A program made the translations under genes and the position numbers. From a virus (lineage: Duplodnaviria; Caudoviricetes): DNA of 64,000 bases. The notes under the pieces were generated by a model. The model had not been told where the DNA came from. It did no database searches and saw only the letters and a program-made list of their open reading frames with translations. The stretch covers positions 1-64,000 of the IMG/VR virus record IMGVR_UViG_3300014208_000027, one strand, 5' to 3'. This document shows positions 4,575 through 43,102 of the stretch, one piece after another (positions within the stretch are counted from its first letter, which is position 1; each line of letters starts with the position of its first letter).

Positions 4575-4781
4575 ATGTCAAATAAACTTGAAATCGGAAC
4601 GTTAGTTAAAATAAAAGAAAATACTTATGGATATTCTGAATATCTAAAATTTAATAATCAAATTGGTGTTATTATTGAATATGGGAAGATTGGTAGGCAA
4701 GGACAATTATATCAAGTTGTGGTTTTTAATGATTTTACTAGGTGTCCTTTATACGAGGATGCTTTTACGATTTTAGATTGA
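4575..4781 (+). CDS. Small SH3/KOW-like protein
   Basis: MSNKLEIGTLVKI start, 68 aa, beta-rich. Confidence 0.65.
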   Translation: MSNKLEIGTLVKIKENTYGYSEYLKFNNQIGVIIEYGKIGRQGQLYQVVVFNDFTRCPLYEDAFTILD

Positions 4782-4844
4782 CAAGGCATGAAACCATGTC
4801 ATAATAGAATGGTAAGGCAAGAAAAAAATAAATTGGAAAGGAAA

Positions 4845-5261: not shown

Positions 5262-5430
5262 GCACAAAATAAATAAACTTTCCTACTTGACATTCCTTCC
5301 CTACCTGTCATAATAAATTAAAGAATCAAACAACAAAGGAAAACAAAAATGACATTAAGTCTTATATTTCAGAAGTGTTTCACAATGTTTTGAATATTGA
5401 GGCTGATTAAACAAAAAACAGAATAGCCTA

Positions 5431-5459
5431 TTGACAGATTAGTTTGGATCGTTCATAAT
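5431..5459 (+). promoter_or_regulatory. Promoter TTGACA-17-CATAAT (similar ones at 5287-5314, 7014-7041, 7707-7734, 8092-8120, 9011-9039)
   Basis: -35/-10 hexamers with 16-17 nt spacers ahead of successive small genes. Confidence 0.7.
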
Positions 5460-5524
5460 CTAAGGGTAGGCGAGAAAAAAAGTTTTCCAAACCTGCCTTA
5501 ACAGGCAAGAAAGTGAAATGAAAA

Positions 5525-8358: not shown

Positions 8359-8487
8359 GTGCAAGCGCGCTACTAATGAATCTAGGTGTTTTTGTGGTAT
8401 GCATCTCACTAGGCTATTTCGTGGTGGGTCCGGTTGTGATGCTTTATCTTGATAGGGATAAAAGGAAATAATACGAAGGGTAGAAAA

Positions 8488-9728: not shown

Positions 9729-10004
9729 CCCTAGCAAGTTTCCCTAGTAGGCAACAAAAAAATAAAGAGTAAAGGATAGAAGCAAGTTACAGATAATATC
9801 CTACCTGTAGCAAACTAACAAGCCAAAGCAATCCTTCCATTAGAGATACCTCAGAAGCCTTTACAGGCAAGAAAAATAATAGCTAAAGAAGGTTAGAGTA
9901 CCAGCAAAACAGGTAAGAACAACTTAGCCAAGGTAGGAAAGCTATAACCCATTTTCCATACCATATTTTACCACTGTTTACCACTTTATACCCTTGACAA
10001 TTTG

Positions 10005-11121
10005 TAACCCATTGAAATTGTTAGGTAGTGTTTTGCTACCCTTCTAGCCCTTCATATCATTTACTTGGCCTCTATCTTGCACTACTAGCATATATCATAC
10101 CAAGTATCATCAGGCTAAAGTTAAATATTTCTTGCTTAGATAAGCATTAACTTATTGACAGTACTATATATTTTATGCATACCTATAATAGATATTGTGA
10201 GATTGTAGGTAGCTTTATCAAAGTACAGGGAATCATTAAGGAAAATTATTTGGGTTAACATGACAGCCCACGTTGGCTTAACATGACACGCTAAGTAATT
10301 GGAATTATTGATGAACTAGAAAGAGTGATACTGGTAAAATTTAATAAAGAATGTCTTGACGGCAATGACTACAGTGTGGATAAGTTACTTCCCCTGATAC
10401 CTTAGCTAGACGTTCTGAAGGTGCTTCAAAGATTATTTTAACTTCACGGTTAGAGTAATAAGTCAAGAAGAATAATAAAGTTTTATTTACTGTATCCTTT
10501 GCATATATCATACCAACTATTTTCTACCCTTAGTTACTTTTTCCTTGTCTTTACTATCCTTTCTATGGTATAATCCTACCTTTTTATATTATTAAAAACT
10601 GTGGAAGCTTATCACACCTTGTTAGTATTGTAAAGATATTTTTTTTATTCCCTATCATTTTTATGGCCTATTACTTGCTAATACATTTTTCATGCCTAGT
10701 CAATCCTATGCACAGTAGCTATCCCTTGTCAAGTATTATTTTAAGTTACCTACCCTTGTTACCCCTTGCAAGTTCTACACCATCTTATTGGCACGTTATA
10801 TGCTTACTAACCTTTCCCCTATTCTTAGCAAGTATCATACCATTGCTAACCCTTTGATATCCTTAATCTATTAGCGACACACGTTATAAGGGTAGGCACA
10901 AATAAAATTCTATGCCATGTATTTACCTTGCATAACCTATGCCTAATAACCTTAACGATTACAAAGGGTTACAAAGGATAGCTAACCTTGAGTCCCTACT
11001 TGTAGCTACCTTACTAACCATAGCGCGGCATGACACTTGCAAAGGGTTGAAGTGTAGGCAAGCTCAAACTTGTGGACTCTGTTTTGACAAGGCTAAATAG
11101 CGTAGGGATATCACGGGGTTA
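10005..11121. repeat. Four copies of 19-bp motif TAACCCNNTGWWATYSYTA
   Basis: (+)10005-10023,10847-10865; (-)10953-10971,11103-11121. Confidence 0.75.
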
Positions 11122-32530: not shown

Positions 32531-33441
32531 TATTTTAAACTTTCCACTAAGGATTTTAGATCTATTCCTGCAATGTCCCACTTTTCTTTATTTTGATGAT
32601 AATGTCCAACAATGCCTCTATAGGTACAGTTTTGCACTTCGCTAGACACCTCATAGAGCCCGTTTCCATCCTTATCAAGTGGAGTATCTAGTGGAATGTT
32701 TAACCCCGTAGAAAGGGCTTTAAGTAGTACCTTAAGCGCTTCTATTTGAATAGGATATAGTCCTAGGAAATTTTTATATTTATGCCCATGGAAAGTTTGT
32801 GATTTAACAATGGGTCGTGAAGGCAATCCTTTGCTGGTATAATAAGAATTATATTTTGTCTCAATAGGATTACAAACTTCAATACCAACAGAATAGGAAT
32901 TAATATTTCCGCAATGTTGTGCGCTATATTGAAGGTCTGTTGACTGATAAATTGTTCCATCATAATCGATGAGAAACCCGATTGACAATCCTCGCCTTTC
33001 TAAAACTTTGAAACAATCATGAGAAGTTAAACAAACATCGTGGTGACAAACAATCATATTAATTGGATGTCCATGTCTTGGACGAATATTTTTTTCCGAC
33101 GCTGCTAGTGGTTTTCCACTGTATAAACCAATAAACTTATCCCATGGAATTTCAAAACTATTAGAACCATTGACAATATAGTTTTTTTGTTCCAAATTTA
33201 GAGATTTTGACTCGAACTTCTGCTTAACAAGTTCAAATTTTAATTGTCTATCATTGTTAATAGACCGAAATGTATTAGGACCACATAAACCATCGGCCCG
33301 AAGATTGTTATTTGTTTGATAATTTTTAATAGCTTCAGTTAAAGTTTCATTAAATTCAGAAGCCCCGAACCATTCAGGCAGCCATCCTAACATATTTGCG
33401 CTGGCTTTATTATAAAAAATAGGATCTTTAATTTCCGACAT
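32530..33441 (-). CDS. Endolysin: PG-binding domain + N-acetylmuramoyl-L-alanine amidase (Amidase_2)
   Basis: YQTNNNLRADGLCGPNT; VCHHD, GFLIDYDGTIYQ, SVGIE, GHY..KWD. Confidence 0.8.
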   Translation of the reverse strand: MSEIKDPIFYNKASANMLGWLPEWFGASEFNETLTEAIKNYQTNNNLRADGLCGPNTFRSINNDRQLKFELVKQKFESKSLNLEQKNYIVNGSNSFEIPWDKFIGLYSGKPLAASEKNIRPRHGHPINMIVCHHDVCLTSHDCFKVLERRGLSIGFLIDYDGTIYQSTDLQYSAQHCGNINSYSVGIEVCNPIETKYNSYYTSKGLPSRPIVKSQTFHGHKYKNFLGLYPIQIEALKVLLKALSTGLNIPLDTPLDKDGNGLYEVSSEVQNCTYRGIVGHYHQNKEKWDIAGIDLKSLVESLK

Positions 33442-38455: not shown

Positions 38456-39485
38456 AGTTATCTCTGAAGAATCTGCAATGGGTGCTGGTGCTGTAGTCGG
38501 TGCTCCTAGCTTATCAGGCTCTTTAGAAGAAGAAAAAGATTATCAAACTTCTGTGAAATCTCATCATTCTGGTTATAAATCTGCGATGATTGACCATGGT
38601 AATCAAACAAAAGGTAGCGAACCTTTTACTGTTAAACCTAATATGAAACGTAGTAAGTCTGCGCCTCCTTTAGGAGAAGATTTTAAAATGACTGATAAAG
38701 CTCAAATAGATGAAGAACTTACCTTACGAAAAGCTATTCGTAATTTTATTAAAGAAGAAAAAAGTTCTTTACTTAAAGAATCATTAGAAGAGTCTAAACT
38801 TCGGGGATATATTCGCACTCTTCTCAAGGAAGAAAAAAGCAAAGTCGAAAAAGAAATACCCTACGATTCTACCGGTATTAATGTACTAGAAGATTTGCTA
38901 AAGAAAGTTCTTCCTATTGTTGAGACAGACTTTAAAAGTTTAACTTCCGATCCAGCTCAAAGAGAAAGTTTCAGGGCACACATTCTAACATCTATTCAAA
39001 ATACGCTTATGCCTTCCATCTTAACGAAGCATAGAGAGCGAAGAGAAGATAGTCCTGCTGAATCTCCAGAAATGGAATTAGAAGATAAAGAATTAGATGT
39101 AACCATTGGTTCTGATACTGTTCCTATGACTTCACCGGATCCTACAGGTTTTATTGATATCAGTAAAAAGAAGCCGCATGTATCATCCTTTGTAAATCTA
39201 CCCGATCAGGACGAGACGGGCAAAAATATGGCGCTGAAAACGTTCGACAAGATAGAAAAAAGTATTCTTGAGGCGTATGAAATTCTAGCTAATGAAGAAG
39301 ATGAACAGTTGTTTTATGATTATCTCATTACAAATCTGAAATTATATTGCGAAAAATGGTCTGATGAGTTAAGTTCGTCAGTAGAAGAACCTACTACACC
39401 AGAGTACGAAAAGACTAAAGATGATATCGAACAAATCAAAAGTCAAACCGATCCGGATGTAGCCTCAGATAATCCGGTCAATTAA
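38439..39485 (+). CDS. Acidic protein, possibly head-internal
   Basis: Repeated (I/L)xEE motifs (LRKAIRNFIKEE, LRGYIRTLLKEE). Confidence 0.55.
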   Translation: MVEKNKVISEESAMGAGAVVGAPSLSGSLEEEKDYQTSVKSHHSGYKSAMIDHGNQTKGSEPFTVKPNMKRSKSAPPLGEDFKMTDKAQIDEELTLRKAIRNFIKEEKSSLLKESLEESKLRGYIRTLLKEEKSKVEKEIPYDSTGINVLEDLLKKVLPIVETDFKSLTSDPAQRESFRAHILTSIQNTLMPSILTKHRERREDSPAESPEMELEDKELDVTIGSDTVPMTSPDPTGFIDISKKKPHVSSFVNLPDQDETGKNMALKTFDKIEKSILEAYEILANEEDEQLFYDYLITNLKLYCEKWSDELSSSVEEPTTPEYEKTKDDIEQIKSQTDPDVASDNPVN

Positions 39486-40121
39486 TTTATACTTCAGACA
39501 AGTCTCGGCATCAAAAAATAGATCATGTTTAAGAATTCCGCTTAACTGTTTCTTGGGAATTTTAGTATAAACTAGATAAGTTTCGATGATTTTACTCATC
39601 AGTAATTCACAATTCGCCATTTCATCTTGTAGGTTAGCAAAACTTCCCCAAAACTGGGTTGAGAGTTGATGAATCAGCATTACAGAATTACGCATCATTG
39701 ATCTTTTATGCCCAGAAACAGACATAATTGTAGCTGCCGAACTACATTCGCCTTCAACTACAGTTAAAACGGGCACAATAGAGCTTCTAATAAGATCTGA
39801 AGCTAAAATACCATCTACAGCAGAACCACCTGGGCTATTAATATGCAAAACAATTTCTTGTTCAGGTGTACCCATTTCAATGCTAATTTGTTTAGACACA
39901 ATTCCAATGCGTTTAATTTCTTTGTGCAAATCTAAAACAGAACTTTTATTTACTCCAGTGTAGAAATAGATCTCATTATTTACTGAAGTAACACGTTCAT
40001 CATCATCGTCATGTTCATCATTTCTTTCTTTATCGCGTTTGTCTTCAAGATCACACATTTCGCAAAGGTTATACTTATTTTTTCTCTGTATTAGTTTTTT
40101 CAAACACGTCTCCTTGACCAA
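39465..40121 (-). CDS. clpP: ClpP-like protease (start may be ATG 40058)
   Basis: INSPGGS, ECSSAAT (Ser), MLIHQ (His), HDLFFDAE. Confidence 0.85.
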   Translation of the reverse strand: MVKETCLKKLIQRKNKYNLCEMCDLEDKRDKERNDEHDDDDERVTSVNNEIYFYTGVNKSSVLDLHKEIKRIGIVSKQISIEMGTPEQEIVLHINSPGGSAVDGILASDLIRSSIVPVLTVVEGECSSAATIMSVSGHKRSMMRNSVMLIHQLSTQFWGSFANLQDEMANCELLMSKIIETYLVYTKIPKKQLSGILKHDLFFDAETCLKYKLIDRII

Positions 40122-40500
40122 AATAGGTATCTGGATGATATTTTTTAATTATTTTAATATAATCTTGCCTAGTTATGCCCATAATAGCATAGGCTTCTCG
40201 GTGATAATCTGCTACTGACCAATAGTATTTTAACAAAGCGTCTCTAACAACATCTTTTAATGAATACCAAAGTGGGTGTCCAAATATGCCACCACCAAAA
40301 GATTTTGCTGCTAGTTCAAGTTTAAGACCAATAATTTCTTCTAAGGATAATTGATTAAGCATAACTTCAAACTCTTGGGTGGTTTTACCCTCCTTTTCTA
40401 ATTTTTTAGATAAAGAACAGAGTAACTTTTTCTTACTCTTGGCATAATTTTTCTTTTTACGCCATTCTAAAAGATTAAAATCAATTTTATCCACTTCCAC
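40075..40500 (-). CDS. Hypothetical protein, leaderless GTG
   Basis: TTGACT-17-TAACAT at 40507-40535. Confidence 0.65.
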   Translation of the reverse strand: MEVDKIDFNLLEWRKKKNYAKSKKKLLCSLSKKLEKEGKTTQEFEVMLNQLSLEEIIGLKLELAAKSFGGGIFGHPLWYSLKDVVRDALLKYYWSVADYHREAYAIMGITRQDYIKIIKKYHPDTYFGQGDVFEKTNTEKK

Positions 40501-40602
40501 ATGTTAATGTTACTAAAAAAAAACTTAATAGTCAATAAGAATTTTCACAAGGAAACAAAAAAAAGATGCTTGACAATTAGCATGAATGTGATAAGTTAGA
40601 AG

Positions 40603-40676
40603 AGCGTAACGTTCCTTTTCTCATCAAAAAATTGGAAACAATTTTCCCGGTAGCTGGTTACTACCGGGTTTTTTTT
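40603..40676 (+). ncRNA. Candidate ~75-nt small RNA
   Basis: Promoter TTGACA-16-TAAGTT (40570-40597), GAAA-tetraloop hairpin 40628-40645, terminator; no ORF. Confidence 0.6.
40646..40676 (+). terminator. Intrinsic terminator
   Basis: CCCGGTAG-7-CTACCGGG followed by T8. Confidence 0.85.
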
Positions 40677-40867
40677 ATTTTAACTTGTCATTTAATGCTC
40701 TTGAGAACATATTATATACCTTTAACGGCTCTGAACGGCATATTGGGCCAATCTCCGACCCGTACCCCTCTAGCCGCACTTGTAAGCGTCTAATAAGCTC
40801 GCTAAGAGGGTTTCTAGCGTTAGATACATCCTAAGGTGGGTAGAACTAAGAACGCTTTGTGACGCCG

Positions 40868-41635
40868 TTAAACGCCTTTGAGGAAGTCTTTGAGAAAGTC
40901 ATGCGTACAAGAAAAAAGAAAATGATCCATAACGGAAAACCCACTATGCACCATACCAATAAGTTGCCCATACCGATTAACAATCATACTCCCACTACTA
41001 CCCCCAGCAACAAATAAAGAATATGTGGCTACTTCACCTTTAAGACTGTTTGGCATAGTAATACTTCCACTATAGAAACCTTCAAAAATTGGTGAAGATC
41101 CTGAAATGTAAATTCCTTTAGGGTATCCAATGTATAGAACTTTTTCTCCAATTCTTGGACCATTCTTAGATATTTTAACAGCAGGCATAAATAAATTTTC
41201 TACTGTCATTAAACAAGCATCTTTTGCGGAGTCAGTTTTTAAAACTTTAGTCTTTTCATAAGAATTGCCATCAAAATCGTAAATTACATACTCAAATTTA
41301 ACATTCTTCAGCGTGATAAAAGATGGTGGTGTTGGTAATTCGATACTGCAAATATGATTAGCTGTTAAAACTACTGAACTTCCAACATTATTTTTAACTA
41401 CAGAACCAGAACCAAAAGCTAAAGAACTTTTGTCAAAACAGACTTCTCCATTTTGTTGCACACAAACCTTAAATGATGTTTTGATCTTAATATGAACTGC
41501 CGACTTGTAAGGAACAAAATTGTCGCTGGAAGAAGAAAAATAGTTTCCATTCAAACCCTGTGTGCAGCATAGCTGAAAAAAAATAGGAACGGCGAGAACT
41601 GCTAAAAACGGTAGGGTTTGCTTGGTATACTTCAT
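40868..41635 (-). CDS. Trypsin-like serine protease with signal/lipoprotein-like N-terminus
   Basis: LTANHIC, KDACL, GGSSGS. Confidence 0.85.
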   Translation of the reverse strand: MKYTKQTLPFLAVLAVPIFFQLCCTQGLNGNYFSSSSDNFVPYKSAVHIKIKTSFKVCVQQNGEVCFDKSSLAFGSGSVVKNNVGSSVVLTANHICSIELPTPPSFITLKNVKFEYVIYDFDGNSYEKTKVLKTDSAKDACLMTVENLFMPAVKISKNGPRIGEKVLYIGYPKGIYISGSSPIFEGFYSGSITMPNSLKGEVATYSLFVAGGSSGSMIVNRYGQLIGMVHSGFSVMDHFLFSCTHDFLKDFLKGV

Positions 41636-41720: not shown

Positions 41721-43058
41721 ATGTTCAAACTTAAAAAGGAGTACCGCTTGAGCAAAAAAATCTATGTCTTCGACACGAACATAATCTTGCATGACCCACA
41801 GTCAATCTACAACTTTCCAAACTCTGAGATTATTATACCTCTAATAGTTTTAGAAGAGTTAGACCGTACAAAAATAAAGTTTGATAATGTGGGTGTTAAT
41901 GCTCGAAACTTTATTAAAACTATGGATGGACTAAGAAACAAAGGAAGTTTGTTTGGTGGTGTAGAATTAGTAGAAAATTGTATTGTAAAGGTAAAAGATA
42001 TTAAAAAAGATTTCTCTTTTGGAAATAACTCATCATTGTCTCTAGAGAGTAATGATAATAGAATTTTAGCTCTTGCTGTAGTGGAACAATTTAATAATCC
42101 TGAGAAAGAAGTAACTCTAGTAACAAGAGATTTAAATCTTAGAGTAAAAGGAGATAGCGTAGGAGTAAAATCTGAAGGATATGACAAGGACAAGACGGTA
42201 ACATCAAGAGATGAATTATACGATGGGTTTGCTGAAATAGAAGTTGAAGATGAGTTAATAGATCGCTTCTATGCGGGGGAAAAAGTATTCTTAGATAATA
42301 ATAATTTATACTGTAACCAATTTGTAAATCTTTTGGGTAGGAACAATAATAAAAAGTCTGGATTAGCAAGGTTTGTTGGAGAAGGGAAAGAATTAGCTAA
42401 GGTAGGGGAATTTAAAAAAGGTTGTTTTGGTCTTTATCCGAAGTCAAAAGAACAAATTGCGGTACTAAATCTACTGATGGATCCTAGTATTGCTGTTGTA
42501 TCTTTGTCAGGGCAAGCAGGAACCGGGAAGACTCTCTGTGCATTAGCGGCTGGTTTGCAACAAGTGATTGGTAGTAAACAAAAATACAAAAAAATTATTG
42601 TATCTCGGCCAAATACATCCATCGGACCCGGTTTAGGTTGGGTCCCCGGAACAAAAGAAGATAAGATTCTTGTTGGGATGGGATCAATAATTGATAACCT
42701 AGACTTTATGCTTGGAGATTCTAGAGCGTTAGAAAATTATGTAGACCAAAATATTATTGAATTAGAAAATTTATCCTACATACGAGGAAGATCTATTAAC
42801 GAAGCTTATATAATTTTCGATGAATGTCAAAGTTATACTCCCAATGAAATGAAAGCAATTCTTACAAGAGTTGGTGAAGGAAGTAAAATTATTCTCACTG
42901 GAGATCTTGAACAAATTGACACTCCAAACTTGAATGAATTAACTAGTGGATTTTCTTATACTATTGAAAAACTCAAAGGACAAAAATTCTTTAGCCATGT
43001 TACTCTAAAGAAATCTGAAAGATCTGAAGTAGCTGGTGTTTGTGCTAGACTATTATAA
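41721..43058 (+). CDS. phoH: PIN-PhoH protein
   Basis: VFDTNIILHD PIN domain; GQAGTGKT, YIRGRS, FDECQ. Confidence 0.92.
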   Translation: MFKLKKEYRLSKKIYVFDTNIILHDPQSIYNFPNSEIIIPLIVLEELDRTKIKFDNVGVNARNFIKTMDGLRNKGSLFGGVELVENCIVKVKDIKKDFSFGNNSSLSLESNDNRILALAVVEQFNNPEKEVTLVTRDLNLRVKGDSVGVKSEGYDKDKTVTSRDELYDGFAEIEVEDELIDRFYAGEKVFLDNNNLYCNQFVNLLGRNNNKKSGLARFVGEGKELAKVGEFKKGCFGLYPKSKEQIAVLNLLMDPSIAVVSLSGQAGTGKTLCALAAGLQQVIGSKQKYKKIIVSRPNTSIGPGLGWVPGTKEDKILVGMGSIIDNLDFMLGDSRALENYVDQNIIELENLSYIRGRSINEAYIIFDECQSYTPNEMKAILTRVGEGSKIILTGDLEQIDTPNLNELTSGFSYTIEKLKGQKFFSHVTLKKSERSEVAGVCARLL

Positions 43059-43102
43059 TCCGCTAACATGCTTGAGCATGATTACGGATTTATATTTTTT
43101 TT
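43058..43102 (+). terminator. Probable terminator after phoH
   Basis: ATCCG..CATGC-TTGA-GCATG..CGGAT then T-run. Confidence 0.6.

Follow-up and report, generated by a model that had tools for sequence, protein, structure and literature searches.

A candidate small non-coding RNA unit in an intergenic gap of an uncultured groundwater phage

The locus and its transcription signals

The window analyzed here is the first 64 kb (64,000 nt) of a virus record of 203,498 bp that is rated complete and derives from a groundwater metagenome. The mean G+C content of the genome is 34%, and non-coding DNA makes up 5% of it. The candidate unit sits in a 367-nt gap (40501–40867) between two minus-strand genes. 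One of these (40075–40500) encodes a 141-aa protein of no known family and is followed by a ClpP-like gene. The other (40868–41635), which flanks the gap on its far side, encodes a secreted-looking Trypsin_2 protease, past which lies a PIN-PhoH gene on the plus strand. The nearest plus-strand genes end at 39485 upstream and start at 41721 downstream, and the plus strand downstream of the unit is gene-free for 1.1 kb. Because no plus-strand gene lies nearer than these, the promoter described below (P1) is the sole nearby source of plus-strand transcripts for the terminator that follows it (T1). A tRNA/tmRNA search of the window returned no genes, and no paralogues of the unit were found elsewhere in the genome.

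P1 occupies positions 40570–40597 on the plus strand and is composed of a TTGACA box (40570–40575), a 16-nt spacer, a TG dinucleotide (40589–40590), and the −10 box TAAGTT (40592–40597). Upstream of the −35 box, at a distance of 6–13 nt, the sequence reads as an A8 tract (40557–40564); this is where an UP element would lie, and the tract may act as one. The −10 box is weak, with 3/6 consensus matches, which is why P1 is not listed by a consensus promoter scan; a looser genome-wide scan of TTGACA boxes did pick it up. A genome census of these boxes reveals a phage promoter class of the host-type, extended −10 form cTTGACA-N13/14-TGn-TAnnnT, with approximately 15 good members found mostly in non-coding DNA, and P1 fits this class. 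One class member precedes the two tRNA genes of the phage (121489–121648). These minus-strand genes for Ile(tat) and Leu(caa) are outside the window (121489–121688), and their promoter of the P1 class reads TTGACA-16-TGc-TAATGT.

Other promoter-bearing sites were observed in the window. A repeat with the pattern TAGAGTTGACAAAG.ATRAAA.C.TGTCAYAATAGAATGGTAGGG is present in three near-identical copies (388–415, 2893–2920, and 4778–4805), two of which fall within crude ORF calls. Additionally, the non-coding regions 5262–5524 and 9729–10340 contain strong host-type promoters on the plus strand (5287, 5431, and 9994) with no ORF start nearby. The second of these regions is a 0.6-kb gene-free stretch where gene orientation switches.

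The intrinsic terminator T1 (40646–40676, plus strand) is made up of the stem CCCGGUAG/CUACCGGG (40646–40668) and a U8 tail (40669–40676). The stem has 8 bp, 6 of which are G-C pairs, and closes a 7-nt loop (ΔG = −13). Among the 429 U-runs in the non-coding DNA of the whole 203-kb genome, T1 ranks as the best canonical hairpin-plus-U-run. Canonical intrinsic terminators are nearly absent elsewhere, as the next sites are weaker and have poor tails (e.g., 43059–43096, after the PhoH gene, and 8401–8450); the phage must end most transcripts by other means. When T1 is read on the minus strand the hairpin is followed by AAAAUUGUUU, indicating that T1 is oriented for the plus strand.

Together, P1 and T1 delimit a predicted non-coding RNA of about 74 nt (40603–40676, plus strand), the start of which is placed at 40603–40605 from the −10 spacing. 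Near the 5′ end of this RNA is the pyrimidine-rich stretch GUUCCUUUUCUCAU (40611–40624), which is unpaired in the minimum free energy fold of 40603–40676 and is a candidate pairing region. An A-run then leads into a weak A-U hairpin of 7 bp, AAAAUUG-GAAA-CAAUUUU (40628–40645), with a folding energy of −3.5 kcal/mol on its own. The fold of the whole RNA is modestly better than that of shuffled sequences (z = −2.0 to −2.4), which is mostly owed to T1. The RNA contains no AUG or GUG. The sole ORF is a 53-aa TTG ORF (40632–40793) that crosses T1, has no Shine–Dalgarno (SD) sequence, and is missing in relatives; consequently, a small peptide was rejected as the product of the unit.

On the opposite side of P1, the 141-aa gene has a divergent promoter, TTGACT-17-TAACAT (40535–40507, minus strand), with a −10 box that ends 6 nt before the GTG start codon at 40500. 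Since this distance is 6–7 nt in all lineages described below, the mRNA of the 141-aa gene is probably leaderless. The family of the 141-aa protein numbers approximately 50 sequences, occurs widely in contigs of uncultured phages, among them marine contigs from Tara, and has no Pfam or PHROG match. Its LSLEE..LKL core is invariant, and its C-terminal motif, EAARFLGI..L..LLKKY, resembles a Fis/NtrC-type helix-turn-helix. The resemblance to Fis is below significance both in a PDB profile search (E ~0.1) and in Foldseek comparisons with Fis chains (TM 0.57–0.64, E 5–10), for which the structure model has a pLDDT of 64.7.

These elements agree closely with a first-pass annotation made from the letters of the sequence, which had described a self-contained small RNA gene here. 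The promoter that it placed before the RNA, the ORF-free stretch behind it, the pyrimidine stretch, the AAAAUUG-GAAA-CAAUUUU hairpin with its GNRA loop, the 8-bp terminator with U8, and the divergent promoter at 40500 are all present, with the qualification that the −10 box of P1 is weak.

A short promoter-driven RNA beside an A+T-rich stretch could also prime DNA synthesis, as at oriF and oriG of phage T4. Such a role would fit a strong promoter followed by the A/T-rich segment 40623–40645. However, an efficient terminator would release the RNA rather than leave an R-loop, the locus has no repeats or iterons, and the cumulative GC skew turns not here but at ~35 kb, where gene orientation flips. 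A replication-origin primer is thus very improbable.

Conservation in two diverged lineages

Public data hold only two diverged lineages of this locus besides identical copies (L008 and run X2). Contigs from four groundwater DNA runs are identical over 40292–41099, with no microdiversity. A search of sequencing runs found this DNA in no RNA run. The first diverged lineage is a 944-nt JGI contig (L007) encoding a 141-aa protein that is 72% identical to that of the window. The second is represented by two Logan contigs from one sample (SRR33452759), L005 and L006, with identities of 69% and 63% and a break inside the gap spacer. A blastn search of GenBank phages gave no match, exact-pattern scans of IMG/VR for the RNA body and the terminator returned nothing, and protein-based scans of IMG/VR recovered only distant loci (L002–L004) that are without the unit. 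A metagenome scan with the P1 pattern returned 46 loci, every one an unrelated promoter from some other organism. Distant relatives of the 141-aa protein (~50% identity), including L055 and L056, have other neighbors and no unit; in L055 and L056 the upstream genes are co-directional.

The layout of P1 is kept in both lineages (TTGACA-16-TGc-CATAAT in L007 and TTGACA-16-TGg-TATAGT in L005), each of which scores 11/12 plus the TG and carries an A6 tract 4–5 nt upstream of TTGACA. The identity of the P1 core between lineages is 0.64–0.82, versus ~0.55 for shuffles. The promoter of the 141-aa gene is also arranged in the same way in L007 (TTGCAA-17-TAATCT-7-ATG) and L005 (TTGCTT-17-TAACCT-7-ATG). 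Non-coding DNA is randomized at this divergence, with the spacer between start codon and P1 and the RNA body both at shuffle-level identity (0.46–0.58 between lineages for the body, equal to shuffles). No words of at least 7 nt are shared in the RNA body between the window and L007 or between L007 and L005. The GNRA loop is missing from L005, and the A-U hairpin from L007, the RNA of which carries a 10-bp 5′ hairpin. The window and L005 share the block UCAAAAAA, the hairpin, and AAUUUUCC; the L005 hairpin (AAAAUUAG/CUAAUUUU) is one A-U pair longer than that of the window and has the 7-nt loop AACCACC.

With regard to termination, L007 carries its own, unrelated terminator ~77 nt beyond its predicted start, in which a 9-bp stem precedes UCUUUUCUU. 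As L007 keeps a terminator directly behind the same promoter, it is less likely that T1 is a mere stop for read-through from outside. In L005 no terminator is seen within the 82 nt of transcript before the contig ends, and the transcript would enter the 3′ end of an extra convergent ORF. In the SRR33452759 lineage this extra minus-strand ORF (MKINDLIKFEGNY..., L006:4855–5023 and L005:1–40) separates the small-RNA unit from the protease gene. A promoter of the leaderless type, TTGACA-17-TATCTT-6-ATG, precedes it in L006; the assembly break falls inside the ORF and the two contigs are unjoined. In the window, a second promoter-like site of ambiguous status, TTGTCA-17-CATATT (40685–40713, plus strand), comes directly after T1. 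The hexamers and spacing of this site are identical in L007, and the promoter of the extra ORF in L006 uses this box, in reverse orientation, as its −35 box.

The combination of the best terminator in the genome, a promoter of the phage class, and conservation of that promoter in two diverged lineages indicates that the unit is beyond chance. We put the odds that a discrete RNA of ~74 nt is made from it at roughly two in three. A different account is that the unit has no dedicated function, with P1 and T1 being leftovers of a lost gene and T1 stopping stray upstream transcription of the plus strand. The gene content at this junction does vary, as seen from the extra ORF in L005/L006 and a G+C-rich insert specific to the lineage of the window. 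Furthermore, the RNA body is unconserved, and between the plus-strand genes that end at 39485 and T1 there is no terminator belonging to those genes. A strong promoter without a use would be expected to decay, yet all P1 elements and spacings are kept amid randomized non-coding DNA, and L007 retains its terminator directly behind the promoter; these observations leave the remnant explanation with only a slight probability.

The same pattern, in which the promoter and the presence of a stop are conserved and the transcribed sequence is not, is what would be expected if the act of transcription mattered rather than the RNA. P1 would then be kept as the counterpart of the leaderless promoter that lies back to back with it in front of the 141-aa gene, for example through supercoiling coupling or through recruitment of or competition for polymerase. 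T1 would only block an antisense run into the convergent protease gene, and the RNA would be a by-product. Both divergent promoters stand at the same distance in all three lineages, and T1 stands between P1 and the convergent gene. On the other hand, L005 shows no terminator before its convergent ORF, the promoter-like site right after T1 would defeat insulation if it is real, and the window and L005 share a hairpin block within the RNA body. Promoter coupling is also rare as an evolved design. We regard this account as the main rival to the reading of a functional RNA, with a fairly low probability. A related proposal is that of a throw-away unit, in which P1 and its prompt stop are kept only so that the firing of P1 controls the leaderless promoter of the possibly Fis-like 141-aa gene. 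If true, this would explain a conserved promoter and stop around a freely drifting RNA, with control exerted via local supercoiling or polymerase sharing; we regard it as improbable.

The downstream spacer and the minus strand

The remainder of the gap, 40677–40867, contains the most G+C-rich non-coding DNA of the phage (53% over 40726–40825 versus 45% in the tRNA region) and gave no Rfam match. Within it, a stable 61-nt hairpin (40722–40782) forms on the minus strand only, with a folding energy of −25.3 kcal/mol (z = −3.53) that was equaled by 0/200 shuffles; the plus strand of the same segment folds with −13.2 kcal/mol (z = −0.8). The hairpin segment is an insert specific to the window lineage and absent from L007 and L006. 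Blocks next to the protease stop codon occur in the window, L007, and L006 alike, and long-range helices can form from them on either strand. These features suggest a long structured 3′ region on protease transcripts that extends in the direction of T1. The spacer may belong to the protease mRNA as such a structured 3′ region, or it may form an RNA of its own. The hairpin lies outside the small RNA but bears on what crosses T1.

The latter point is relevant to a cis-antisense role, combined with a convergent terminator zone. Protease read-through on the minus strand would cross T1 towards the 141-aa gene, and the RNA from P1, fully complementary to this read-through, would cause it to be cleaved or terminated. 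No canonical terminator belongs to the protease gene itself, and the 190-nt spacer after it holds the minus-strand-only hairpin, which suggests that minus-strand transcripts reach at least 40722. Moreover, the hairpin at 40628–40645 is followed by U6 when read on the minus strand, and the equivalent hairpin of L005 lies 15 nt past the stop of a minus-strand ORF and is followed by U7. On the other side, the read-through is hypothetical, L007 is without the A-U hairpin, and downstream of the overlap there is a conserved promoter that belongs to the 141-aa gene itself. The strand opposite the RNA carries neither an annotated gene nor a ribosome-binding site, and a search opposite 40603–40676 found no credible minus-strand ORF or start site. 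Consequently, a cis-antisense role is given a small probability.

Candidate functions and relation to known small RNAs

The first-pass annotation had read the unit as the gene of a trans-acting sRNA, the pyrimidine stretch of which could pair with SD sequences, or alternatively as that of a protein-sponge RNA. The self-contained unit stands, in that a predicted non-coding transcript is framed by its own promoter and its own rho-independent terminator, a statement that draws on sequence and its conservation. No conserved single-stranded seed accompanies this frame, as no seed is common to the three lineages. The proposed anti-SD seed UUCCUUUUC is missing from L007, it lies in a body at shuffle identity, and its pairing with SD sequences is at or near chance. 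The sponge idea also does not hold. Sponges of CsrA/RsmA (of the CsrB and RsmY/Z type) need multiple GGA motifs in loops, and the RNA has a single GGA at the stem-loop edge of 40628–40645 that is not conserved, the L005 loop being AACCACC. Rfam 15, searched over the whole window as the first-pass annotation had proposed, matched no family at the gathering score. In E-value mode the top match was manA-II (28 bits versus a gathering score of 100), which was driven by the terminator, and the rest scored at most 23 bits.

Target prediction among phage genes, another of the checks proposed at first pass, gave results at or near chance. When the free 5′ part of the RNA was compared with the start regions of 276 phage genes, the best duplex (−22.7 kcal/mol, gene 141470–141877) was borderline, as 3/100 shuffled seeds equaled it. 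A perfect 10-nt complement, AGAAAAGGAA, is present in the ribosome-binding site of the Amidase_2 endolysin gene (ATG at 33441). This match is ordinary: ten-mers like it occur 22 times in the genome, and 179/500 shuffled RNAs pair equally well. The endolysin gene of the L005 lineage (P0064, L057), which is on the same contig as L005, has the site AGAGGAAAAAAGAA, which the L005 RNA does not match beyond chance (67/500). Control of endolysin by the RNA is therefore not supported, as the match is at chance level and shows no co-variation in the L005 lineage. Pairing of the RNA of each lineage with its own neighboring mRNAs also gave no signal.

Trans-acting sRNAs of the MicC/SgrS type are described as having a pairing region, a structure that binds a chaperone, and a terminator of the rho-independent type (PMC9761848). 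Like these sRNAs, the unit has its own promoter and a predicted length of ~74 nt; its 5′ region is free, a segment rich in A/U adjoins a hairpin, and the terminator hairpin is followed by a long U tail. It differs from them in having no conserved seed, no target above chance, and no Rfam family. With respect to binding of an Hfq/ProQ-type chaperone, the predicted RNA shows motif resemblance only (the A-run, the hairpin, and U8).

Regulatory RNAs encoded by phages include PAK_P4as15, which is antisense at an endolysin gene, CfrI of cyanophage S-PM2, which is antisense at psbA, and DicF (PMC12197685). Like these, the unit would specify a phage-encoded small untranslated RNA, presumed to tune phage or host expression. 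The 10-nt match to the endolysin ribosome-binding site recalls PAK_P4as15, but it is no better than chance and shows no co-variation. Both PAK_P4as15 and CfrI are RNAs in cis-antisense to a gene, whereas the unit overlaps no gene and has no sequence or Rfam similarity to them. A further comparison is offered by the divergent regulator/small-RNA gene pairs oxyR-oxyS, gcvA-gcvB, and sgrR-sgrS. As in these pairs, the RNA gene is back to back with a small conserved gene, here one with a weak Fis/NtrC-type resemblance. In contrast to these pairs, the assignment of the 141-aa protein as DNA-binding is below significance, and distant relatives carry the gene without the RNA unit.

Based on these results, the unit probably makes a small non-coding RNA early in infection. 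Host RNA polymerase would start at P1, using the A-tract, TTGACA, the 16-nt spacer, TGn, and the −10 box, and would stop ~74 nt later at T1, the genome's strongest intrinsic terminator. Once released, the RNA would possess an unstructured, pyrimidine-rich 5′ part of ~25 nt, followed by the A-run, the weak A-U hairpin, and the terminator hairpin with U8. Early in infection, its free 5′ part would most likely pair with one or a few mRNAs of the phage or the host, and this pairing part of the RNA would evolve fast. We infer the production of the RNA, its start site, its action in trans, and any target from the DNA sequence and its comparison. Among the readings considered, that of an independent early transcription unit with an RNA that is itself functional by base-pairing in trans leads, because the layout is that of classical trans-acting sRNAs and the bodies of sRNAs often drift at this divergence. 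We assign it a tentative probability of about 0.45.

The unit is accordingly best described as an unproven candidate among phage-encoded small RNAs that belongs to no described family. To our knowledge, regulatory RNAs have been poorly catalogued in large lytic phages, and none has been described for uncultured groundwater phages. Should the RNA be real, it would be an early and probably abundant phage transcript from a promoter under clear constraint. It would then offer a handle on early host takeover or the timing of phage gene expression. As a candidate drawn from sequence, the unit has a modest immediate value. The most instructive aspect of the unit is that a conserved promoter and terminator surround an unconserved body, which separates the question of whether an RNA is made from the question of whether the sequence of that RNA does something.
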